Under the pieces are notes generated by a model. That model had not been told where the DNA came from. It did no database searches and worked only from the letters and a program-made list of their open reading frames with translations. A stretch of 64,000 nt of DNA from Escherichia coli. GTDB lineage: Bacteria; Pseudomonadota; Gammaproteobacteria; Enterobacterales; Enterobacteriaceae. Positions within the stretch are counted from its first letter, which is position 1. Every line of letters begins with the position of its first letter. The DNA is taken from the NCBI RefSeq assembly GCF_046105845.1, contig NZ_CP151004.1; one strand, written 5' to 3'. Both the position numbers and the translations under genes were made by a program. Below, piece by piece: positions 61,250-63,939 of the stretch.

Positions 61250-61974
61250 GTAAAAGCCGCTTAACGGTGTTTAGTTTCATTCGCCGTTTTCTTCTGCGGT
61301 TAATGGTTGTCCTCGCCGTTTTCTGGGGCGGGGGCATCGCGTTGTTTAGCGTTGCGCCTGTTCCTTTCTCAGCGGTAATGGCCGAGCGACAAGTCAGCGC
61401 CTGGCTGCATGGCAATTTTCGTTACGTGGCACATTCTGACTGGGTCAGTATGGATCAAATTTCGCCGTGGATGGGACTGGCGGTGATTGCCGCAGAAGAT
61501 CAGAAGTTTCCTGAGCACTGGGGCTTTGATGTCGCCTCCATTGAGCAAGCCCTGGCCCACAACGAGCGCAATGAAAACCGTATTCGCGGTGCGTCAACGA
61601 TTTCTCAGCAGACAGCCAAAAATCTCTTTTTATGGGATGGGCGTAGCTGGGTTCGAAAAGGGCTGGAAGCTGGATTAACGCTGGGGATAGAAACAGTCTG
61701 GAGCAAAAAGCGTATCCTGACGGTTTACCTGAATATCGCCGAATTTGGCGACGGTGTGTTTGGCGTCGAAGCTGCGGCACAACGTTATTTCCACAAACCC
61801 GCGAGCAAACTTACCCGGTCGGAAGCTGCATTACTGGCAGCTGTATTACCTAATCCACTTCGTTTCAAAGTCTCCGCGCCATCGGGCTACGTGCGTGGCC
61901 GTCAGGCGTGGATTTTACGGCAGATGTATCAGTTAGGCGGTGAGTCGTTTATGCAACAGCACCAGCTGGATTAA
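61246..61974 (+). CDS. mtgA: monofunctional peptidoglycan glycosyltransferase
   Basis: 242-aa ORF with an N-terminal membrane anchor and a transglycosylase motif (RGASTISQQ); overlaps the elbB stop. Confidence 0.93.
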
Positions 61975-62603
61975 GCTTCGCGCGAAGTGAGGGCCAGCGT
62001 TTTGCTCTCACGAGGTTGCAGATCTTTCTGCAGGGCAATAGCCAGCGCCGGTTGGGCGATAAATCGTTTCCATAACCGCTCTTGCTTACGCAGACAACAC
62101 CACTTCGACCAGGTCGCCAGTGGAATCAATGTGCTTTCACCAATGTTGTCGCAGACGACTGGGATAACCTCTGACTCACTGATGCGGTGACAGAGGATAT
62201 TCTGCGGCTTCAGCGACATCGTCACGATACGGTTATCCTGCAAATAACGCTTCAGCTGTTTCAGTAACTGGCGCAGTTGTGCAATGTCTTCTTCGTAACG
62301 GCATTGTTCTGCAAATTCGGTCAGCGTAATGGAAGGCTTGCCGTCGAAATCGGCAATCACATCGTAGACATAACCGGTTCCGCAATCCGTCTCAACGGTA
62401 CCGTGATAGCGCGGTATTCCACTCCAGTCTTTTAACCGGCGACCAAGATGCGCGTAGTACTTTAACTCACGGCGGATCTCTTTATCGCCACCATCGCCAC
62501 GATGGTAGACAATCTTGATACAGCGTTGGGCATCTTCCGGATGCGCATAACATTTCCGATGTCTTCCGGTGCCCAGGGGACTTTGTTCAGATAAGCGAAT
62601 CAT
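61971..62603 (-). CDS. yrbL: PhoP-regulated protein YrbL
   Basis: 210-aa ORF recognised as YrbL; convergent with mtgA, with a 4-nt overlap of the gene ends. Confidence 0.88.
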
Positions 62604-62653
62604 GCCATCTCCTGGAAATATTTTCTGACGATCTCCAGTATGGTCGATTAACT

Positions 62654-62670
62654 TAAACGAAACCTAAACA
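62654..62670 (-). promoter_or_regulatory. PhoP box upstream of yrbL
   Basis: The minus strand reads TGTTTA-GGTTT-CGTTTA, a direct hexamer repeat with a 5-nt spacer, 51-67 nt upstream of the yrbL ATG. Confidence 0.6.
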
Positions 62671-62815
62671 ATGCTTCTTAAGGTTTTCTTAAGGTTCTTC
62701 TGAAAGTAAAAAGCGCACGAAATGTACAATTGACGTTGATTGAGAACGATTTCAGTACGCGCTTTTCTTATTGCCGGGGGAGCTTGAAGGGATTTGAATG
62801 TCAAAGTGATGAAGA

Positions 62816-63088
62816 TTAATCTTCATCAAAACCAGAGTTAAAGAGGGCGATAACGGCGGCCAGTGCTTCCTCTTCCTGTGGACCGGTCGCTTCAACTTCA
62901 ATCTGCCGTCCTTTGGCAGAATCCAACATCAGCAGCGCAATAACGCTGTTGGCTTCAGCCTCGGTGCCTTCGTCATTACGTAACAGCACTTCAGCGTCAA
63001 AACCTTGCATTAATTCAAACAGCTTCATTGCAGGCCGGGCATGCATGCCCAGCTTGTTTGTGATTTCAACAGTTTGCTTGACGGTCAT
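62816..63088 (-). CDS. npr: nitrogen-PTS phosphocarrier protein NPr
   Basis: 90-aa HPr-like ORF ([20 protein letters not shown]...), with the active-site His in GMHARPA. Confidence 0.93.
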
Positions 63089-63939
63089 GGTTTACGTTTT
63101 TCCAGCGTACGATGGCGTGACTGGACATTTTTACCGCGCGAGCGGAAGTAGTCTGCCAGTTGCTCTGCAATATACACCGAACGGTGCTTCCCGCCGGTAC
63201 AACCAATGGCGACCGTCAGGTAGCTACGGTTGTTGGTTTCCAGCATAGGTAACCATAGCTCAAGATAGCTTCGCGTCTGGTAGATAAAATTGTGTACTTC
63301 TGTGTGGCGGTCGAGGAACGCGGCGACAGGTTTATCAAGACCTGTCATTGGACGCAGTTTCGGATCCCAGTGCGGGTTCGGCAAGAAGCGCACGTCAAAG
63401 ACGTAATCTGCATCGATAGGGATACCGTGTTTGAAGCCGAAAGACTCAAAGACCATGGTCAGTTCGCGTTCACGTTTACCCAGCAGACGGGTACGCAGCA
63501 TTTCAGCCAGCTCGTGAACGGACATTTCTGAGGTATCGACAATCAGATCCGCTCGCGAACGCAGAGGCTCCAGCAAATCGCTTTCTTTGTCGATAGCACT
63601 TTCCAGCGACAGGTTTTTGCTGGAAAGCGGATGCAGTCGGCGCGTGTCACTGTAACGACGAATTAAGGTATTACGGTCGGCATCCAGGAACAGTAGTTGC
63701 GGTGAGAAAGCGTCAGGCAGGTTACTCATCGCCTGTTCGAATATTTCTGGTGACTCCGGCATATTACGAACATCAATGCTGACGGCGGCAGAAATCTCGC
63801 GATCGGCCAGGGTTCGAGCCAGATCGGGTAACAACACTACGGGAAGGTTATCCACGCAGTAAAAACCCATATCTTCCAGCGCACGCAGGGCGACAGATTT
63901 ACCTGAACCTGAACGTCCGCTGACGATCATCAGTACCAT
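63085..63939 (-). CDS. rapZ: RNase adaptor protein RapZ (YhbJ)
   Basis: 284-aa ORF with a P-loop GRSGSGKS; overlaps the npr start by 4 nt. Confidence 0.94.

Follow-up and report, generated by a model that had tools for sequence, protein, structure and literature searches.

A probable PhoP-activated and BasR-repressed composite promoter upstream of yrbL in Escherichia coli

The 11-bp tandem repeat found upstream of the PhoP box of yrbL in this stretch of Escherichia coli DNA most probably belongs to a PmrA/BasR box. With it, the feature as a whole is the known composite promoter of yrbL, activated by PhoP and repressed by BasR (also called PmrA) from an adjacent upstream site. We give this reading a probability of about 85%. 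The motifs, their statistics, the match to known boxes, the geometry and the conservation were computed here; the binding of PhoP and BasR and the sign of the regulation rest on the literature.

The combination of a PhoP box and a PmrA/BasR box at yrbL is already known. The promoter is a standard example of how the PhoPQ signal (Mg2+ and antimicrobial peptides) and the BasSR/PmrAB signal (Fe3+ and Al3+) are integrated, and it raises no new question. What the present analysis adds is modest: a continuous array phased at 11 bp in seven genera, a BasR box that is inverted with respect to the promoters that BasR activates, and a third conserved block at a fixed distance. Only the third block is possibly new, and it is the sole lead worth following up.

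The locus and the promoters compared

We analyzed a window of 64 kb, the whole stretch of DNA given above. According to the surrounding open reading frames and to a megablast comparison with complete E. coli genomes, its end is occupied by rapZ-npr-yrbL-mtgA of E. coli. The megablast search found 100% identity to several E. coli chromosomes, and 5425 of 5426 genomes gave a match. The features of the region are collected in Table 1.

Table 1. Features around the yrbL promoter, with window positions. Mean column identities are calculated over 17 orthologues.
Feature	Positions	Strand	Mean column identity	Remarks
yrbL coding sequence	61971-62603	minus		210 aa; PF10707 YrbL-PhoP_reg, kinase-like; from the ORF list, RefSeq annotation, homologues and Pfam
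Shine-Dalgarno AGGAG	62609-62613	minus		in the short yrbL 5′ leader; from sequence
-10 hexamer CATACT	62637-62642	minus	0.96	present in 16 of 17 orthologues
PhoP box TGTTTA-GGTTT-CGTTTA (TGTTTAGGTTTCGTTTA)	62654-62670	minus	0.84	direct orientation; 11 nt upstream of the -10, over the -35 position; class II activator site
PmrA/BasR box CTTAAG-GTTTT-CTTAAG	62677-62693	plus (opposite to yrbL)	0.92, against 0.56-0.58 in the adjacent spacers (7 genera)	within a perfect tandem of two TTCTTAAGGTT units, 62675-62696
Invariant block AATTGTACATTTCGTGCGCTTT (core TGTAC-N5-GTGC-N-CTTT)	62710-62731	minus (yrbL strand)	0.91, against 0.48-0.56 in the flanks (7 genera)	21-22 nt upstream of the distal BasR hexamer
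npr (ptsO)	62816-63088	minus		last gene of the rpoN operon, directly upstream of the yrbL promoter region
Intervening spacers and far-upstream DNA			0.48-0.61	

For the comparison, 11 orthologous loci were taken from reference genomes, six more were reached through YrbL homologues, and K-12 was added. The footprinting uses 17 promoters (the window, K-12 and 15 orthologous loci), all of them syntenic for rapZ-npr-yrbL-mtgA and coming from seven genera, which include Escherichia, Citrobacter, Salmonella, Siccibacter, Superficieibacter and Pluralibacter. YrbL-family paralogues next to dnaE (L022-L024) and one contaminant contig (L012) were left out of it.

The PhoP box

The pattern TGTTTA-N5-CGTTTA has one match in the window, where 0.01 would be expected by chance. 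Its sequence, TGTTTAGGTTTCGTTTA, is a direct repeat of the form (T/G/C)GTTTA-N5-(T/G/C)GTTTA, and the box lies 11 nt upstream of CATACT in all 16 orthologues that have that -10. This is the geometry of PhoP architecture I, a direct box 11-12 nt upstream of the -10. Salmonella yrbL is assigned to that same architecture, with one PhoP box in direct orientation, a distance of 11 nt to a CATACT -10, class II activation and a 32-nt leader, and its promoter has been both footprinted and S1-mapped (Zwir et al. 2012, PMC3335776). From the S1 mapping in Salmonella and the alignment, we infer for E. coli a yrbL leader of about 27-32 nt, which would place the transcription start near 62630-62635.

The box of K-12 MG1655 is TGTTTAGGTTTTGTTTA. 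The window strain differs from it by a T to C change at the first base of the proximal hexamer (CGTTTA vs. TGTTTA), and CGTTTA is acceptable as a PhoP hexamer because the published tolerance is (C/T/G)GTTTA (PMC3335776). In Shigella flexneri, a near-identical yrbL promoter fragment is shifted by PhoP-P in EMSA, and deletion of phoPQ lowers yrbL 50-fold. A preliminary description of this DNA had proposed a well-formed PhoP box for yrbL, and its uniqueness in the window, the Salmonella-like spacing to a conserved CATACT and the PhoP-P shift in Shigella all bear the proposal out.

The tandem repeat as a PmrA/BasR box

Read directly, the repeat is a perfect 11-bp duplication, TTCTTAAGGTT followed by TTCTTAAGGTT. 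The pattern CTTAAGGTTNNCTTAAGGTT (CTTAAGGTTTTCTTAAGGTT) matches the window a single time (plus strand, 62677-62696), also with a tolerance of three mismatches, where 0.03 would be expected by chance. Tandem Repeats Finder delimits 62674-62701, with 2.4 copies at a period of 11. The partial third copy implied by that number (62697-62708) was rejected, as it has no conservation in other species.

The published PmrA box consists of the half-sites CTTAAG and xTTAAT separated by a 5-bp spacer, to which a PmrA dimer binds head to tail. A relaxed form of this consensus, YTTAAK-N5-YTTAAK, has its sole site of the 64 kb here (0.06 expected by chance), matching on both strands because CTTAAG is palindromic. 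For the same reason, it is the spacer and the orthologues that must tell the orientation of the box. As to the spacer, the first 9 nt of the yrbL box CTTAAGGTTTTCTTAAG are CTTAAGGTT, which are common to the boxes of eptA and arnB and which occur here only on the plus strand of the window. In K-12, both of those boxes run in the same direction as transcription: that of eptA is CTTAAGGTTGGCTTAAT, with CATATG 13 nt further on, and that of arnB is CTTAAGGTTAAGTTAAT, with TAAAAT 10 nt further on. As to the orthologues, E. albertii, Citrobacter and Salmonella have CTTAAT, read on the plus strand, as the hexamer more remote from the PhoP box. Half-site 1 (CTTAAG) then precedes half-site 2 (CTTAAT), as is canonical, and the two point away from yrbL. 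In K-12 MG1655, the BasR box, the -10 and the spacing are identical to those of the window strain.

The preliminary description had placed tandem 11-bp units upstream of the PhoP box with respect to yrbL, and had taken their spacing of one helical turn as a sign of a second protein-binding site. Both statements hold: the duplication is perfect, yrbL lies downstream on the minus strand, and the unit makes up a canonical PmrA/BasR box for which there is literature on PmrA binding. Two adjacent response-regulator sites had thus been recognised correctly from raw sequence. What that description did not contain is the name of the second protein, the orientation of its box opposite to yrbL, and the prior publication of the architecture.

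Could the repeat be bound by some other protein, such as another OmpR-family regulator or RcsB, and only resemble a BasR box? OmpR-family boxes have the 11-bp direct-repeat plan in common, and the assignment to BasR is made here on the DNA alone. Yet both hexamers are the exact PmrA consensus, nine of nine nucleotides are common with the eptA and arnB boxes, and PmrA binding to this promoter has been published, as summarised in PMC3335776; we regard another protein as extremely unlikely. We give almost no credence to a recent chance duplication by slippage, devoid of function. The perfect copies of E. coli are what such an event would leave, but the core TTAAGAAAACCTTAA is invariant in a 12-sequence alignment of Escherichia, Citrobacter and Salmonella, and has at most one change in further genera while its flanks cannot be aligned. 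The two units also differ from each other in other genera (CTTAAT vs. CTTAAG), hence the duplication is not recent.

We also observe, as a separate matter, that in the K-12 adiC-eptA intergenic region (L013, 2638-2672) the eptA BasR box lies inside a perfect inverted repeat, AAGCCAACCTTAAG-AA-CTTAAGGTTGGCTT, followed by AATTTT. The activator site of eptA thus shares its DNA with what looks like the terminator hairpin of adiC.

Spacing of the array

The phasing of the hexamers hardly varies among the 17 orthologues. The distal and proximal BasR hexamers are 11 bp apart, the proximal BasR hexamer and the distal PhoP hexamer 11-13 bp (12 in E. coli), and the distal and proximal PhoP hexamers again 11 bp. 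Because this phasing is so rigid, the four winged-helix half-sites line up along a single helical face as an uninterrupted array. Between the outer hexamers of the BasR and PhoP boxes there are 6 bp, and the two boxes are on the same helical face. With a transcription start about 7 nt below the -10, the BasR dimer would cover roughly -47 to -63.

The centers of the PhoP and BasR boxes are 23 bp apart in the window strain, against a published distance of about 24 bp for yrbL (Harari et al. 2009). The promoter described for E. coli K-12 and Salmonella yrbL (Zwir et al. 2005; Harari et al. 2009; Zwir et al. 2012) is the same locus.

The sign of BasR control

The E. coli yrbL promoter has been reported to carry PhoP- and PmrA-binding sites, with PhoP activating and PmrA binding and repressing (Zwir et al. 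2005, PNAS 102:2862, as cited in Zwir et al. 2012, PMC3335776). Harari et al. 2009 also place yrbL under both PhoP and PmrA, and call the regulation "experimentally verified". The wiring of yrbL by PhoP and PmrA has been described as a bi-fan motif with pmrD. In E. coli B populations adapted to Fe(III), yrbL belongs to the genes with the strongest down-regulation in precisely those cases in which basR, eptA and arn are raised, a correlative observation in evolved populations.

Geometry also bears on the sign. The boxes of eptA (pmrC) and arnB (pbgP/pmrH) show the same recognition as that of yrbL, CTTAAGGTT with a second xTTAAK hexamer 11 bp on. They are in direct orientation and 10-13 nt upstream of the -10, which is the activator position of BasR, whereas the yrbL box is inverted relative to its gene and lies upstream of the site of another activator. 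Judged by its placement, the yrbL box fits a repressor site and not an activator site.

A close parallel is the pmrD promoter of Salmonella, which, as described in papers citing Kato et al. 2003, likewise combines one class II PhoP box and, upstream of it, a PmrA box. According to those papers, PmrA is the repressor there, and exerts a negative feedback, or damping, on genes induced by PhoP, as at yrbL. The distance between the two boxes is about 38 bp in pmrD vs. 23 bp in yrbL, whose hexamers make one continuous in-phase array.

A positive or dual action of BasR on yrbL, as a co-activator with PhoP, would be the main alternative in sign. Some sources speak of dual PhoP/PmrA regulation or list "BasR, PhoP" with no sign, as does the transcription-unit table of an mBio paper, and four in-phase half-sites of the OmpR family do look like a tandem activator array. 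Against this, the 2012 paper of the Groisman laboratory (PMC3335776) explicitly gives repression, yrbL drops as the BasR regulon rises, and the box differs from those of eptA and arnB in being reversed and in lying further upstream than the activator site. We consider co-activation unlikely.

Another possibility is that the reversed box serves a divergent, BasR-activated promoter on the plus strand, making an RNA antisense to npr, and that any effect on yrbL is secondary. The plus-strand orientation is as at eptA and arnB, and E. coli has TAAAAA 13 nt past the box, followed by GCGCAC, which is loosely like eptA (13 nt, CATATG, CGCAC). But this candidate -10 is without the critical final T, and other species have AGGAAA, AAGAAA, GATAAA or TCAAGA in its place. 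A promoter scan was negative, and downstream there is no conserved ORF or Rfam RNA. Moreover, the box is flipped in an Erwinia species and in Cedecea while its linkage to yrbL is retained. For these reasons, we find a divergent promoter very unlikely.

These flipped boxes are PmrA-type sites of the form CTTAAGGTTTT(A/C)TTAAG on the yrbL strand. Counted from the annotated start of yrbL, the box lies at about -99 to -83 in the locus labelled Erwinia sp. CPCC 100877 (L019) and at about -125 to -109 in Cedecea colo (L021). Compared with E. coli, both have the opposite orientation and another distance, and neither is accompanied by the upstream block. The linkage of a PmrA box to yrbL therefore reaches more distant genera and tolerates inversion. 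Such tolerance fits better with BasR as a repressor or roadblock than with an activator role that depends on geometry. In one Enterobacter hormaechei locus, the PmrA box has decayed.

For PhoP activation with BasR repression, we can propose the following course of events. At low Mg2+, or in the presence of antimicrobial peptides, phosphorylated PhoP would bind TGTTTA-N5-CGTTTA, which takes the place of a -35 element, and would activate yrbL in the class II manner. With Fe3+ or Al3+, sensed through BasS (and in some species with the PhoP-dependent connector PmrD), phosphorylated BasR would bind its box and repress yrbL. An active BasSR system would then damp the induction of yrbL by PhoP, and where PmrD is effective, BasS/BasR would also answer to PhoP itself. 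We favor anti-activation, in which a BasR dimer would be packed against the PhoP dimer. Most likely, the BasR dimer would hinder PhoP at its distal half-site, or block the upstream DNA for the alpha-CTD of RNA polymerase, or both, and the inverted orientation would turn the activating surface of BasR away from the polymerase.

Iron may also act by another route. The yrbL operon has been reported as a newly recognised target that Fur binds and regulates (PMC4676285), so that the effects of iron need not all go through BasR. In 62560-62830, we see no recognisable 19-bp Fur box of the GATAATGATAATCATTATC type; the best match is 11/19, which is the window-wide average for segments of that size. 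The Fur effect on yrbL could be indirect, with iron acting via BasS/BasR, or it could go through an atypical site.

A third conserved block

Upstream of the two boxes there is a third block, which can also be written TTGTACATTTnGTGCnCTTT or AATTGTACATTTnGTGCnCTTT. It is unique in the window, its spacing to the BasR box is fixed in the 17 orthologues, and the DNA on either side of it cannot be aligned. In the papers on yrbL regulation that were covered here, which include Harari et al. 2009 and Zwir et al. 2012, we found no mention of it.

Several known elements were compared with the block. As a Fur box it was rejected, the best score in 62560-62830 being the 11/19 already given. As a sigma-54 -24/-12 element (TTGTAC-N5-GTGC) it was rejected by eye, since the GG is absent in all species. 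As an operator of MlrA/BluR, which are MerR-like, it would have to read AAAGTTGTACA-N12-TGCACAATTTT; only the half-site AATTGTACA, of the GTACA type, is present, and the position 12 nt downstream is variable. Mini-ORFs were rejected as well (no Shine-Dalgarno sequence, and lengths that vary), and there was no relevant match to an Rfam family. Resemblance to RstA, OmpR, marbox and NsrR sites is presumably partial only.

Is the block simply the terminator of npr? In the window strain, there is a long hairpin with a U-run at the block (z = -1.9 to -2.6), of which the 3′ half of the block forms the descending arm. K-12 carries mutations in the ascending (5′) arm, other genera lack that arm, and the one part of the structure found throughout is a 4-bp GUAC/GUGC stem. 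A clean npr terminator precedes the block in C. amalonaticus, Siccibacter and Pluralibacter. Since the hairpin is lineage-specific and other genera have their terminators upstream, the block is probably not simply the npr terminator.

Tentatively, and at clearly less than even odds, we propose that the block is a third cis-element of yrbL control. It may be a putative operator, for a GTACA-recognising MerR-like protein or for the factor behind the Fur dependence, or else an insulator or mini-terminator. In the latter form, it could shield yrbL from read-through of the rpoN operon and work together with BasR.

Gene context and minor observations

An Rfam search of 62400-63100 found nothing relevant and no structured RNA. 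A perfect 20-bp palindrome, GATGAAGATTAATCTTCATC, at 62808-62827 spans the stop codon of npr (TAA, 62816-62818, minus strand). It is largely confined to E. coli and E. albertii, and it carries the top Fur-box-like score of the region, a weak 11/19. At the other end of yrbL, the gene converges with mtgA (plus strand, ending at 61974), and the two overlap by 4 bp at their 3′ ends (61971-61974).

RefSeq names the yrbL product "PhoP regulatory network protein YrbL". Work on RNA polymerase pausing, both structural and single-molecule, also uses a model pause that derives from yrbL, the "yrbL consensus elemental pause" (PMC11260103).

There are faint Pkinase matches, and the K-12 annotation of YrbL reads "protein kinase-like domain". 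YrbL-family paralogues with about 50% identity are found on the metagenome contigs L022-L024 directly after dnaE, some of them in tandem pairs, and they adjoin genes for a Kdo/WaaP-type kinase, a glycosyltransferase and Wzy_C. Taken together, the neighborhood of the paralogues, the faint Pkinase matches and the K-12 annotation hint that YrbL may be a kinase related to the LPS core.

Finally, the contig NZ_JUET01000135.1 (L012; 420 bp), which is labelled Tannerella forsythia ATCC 43037, encodes a protein with 99% identity to that of E. coli yrbL. It is almost certainly an E. coli contamination of the Tannerella forsythia assembly.
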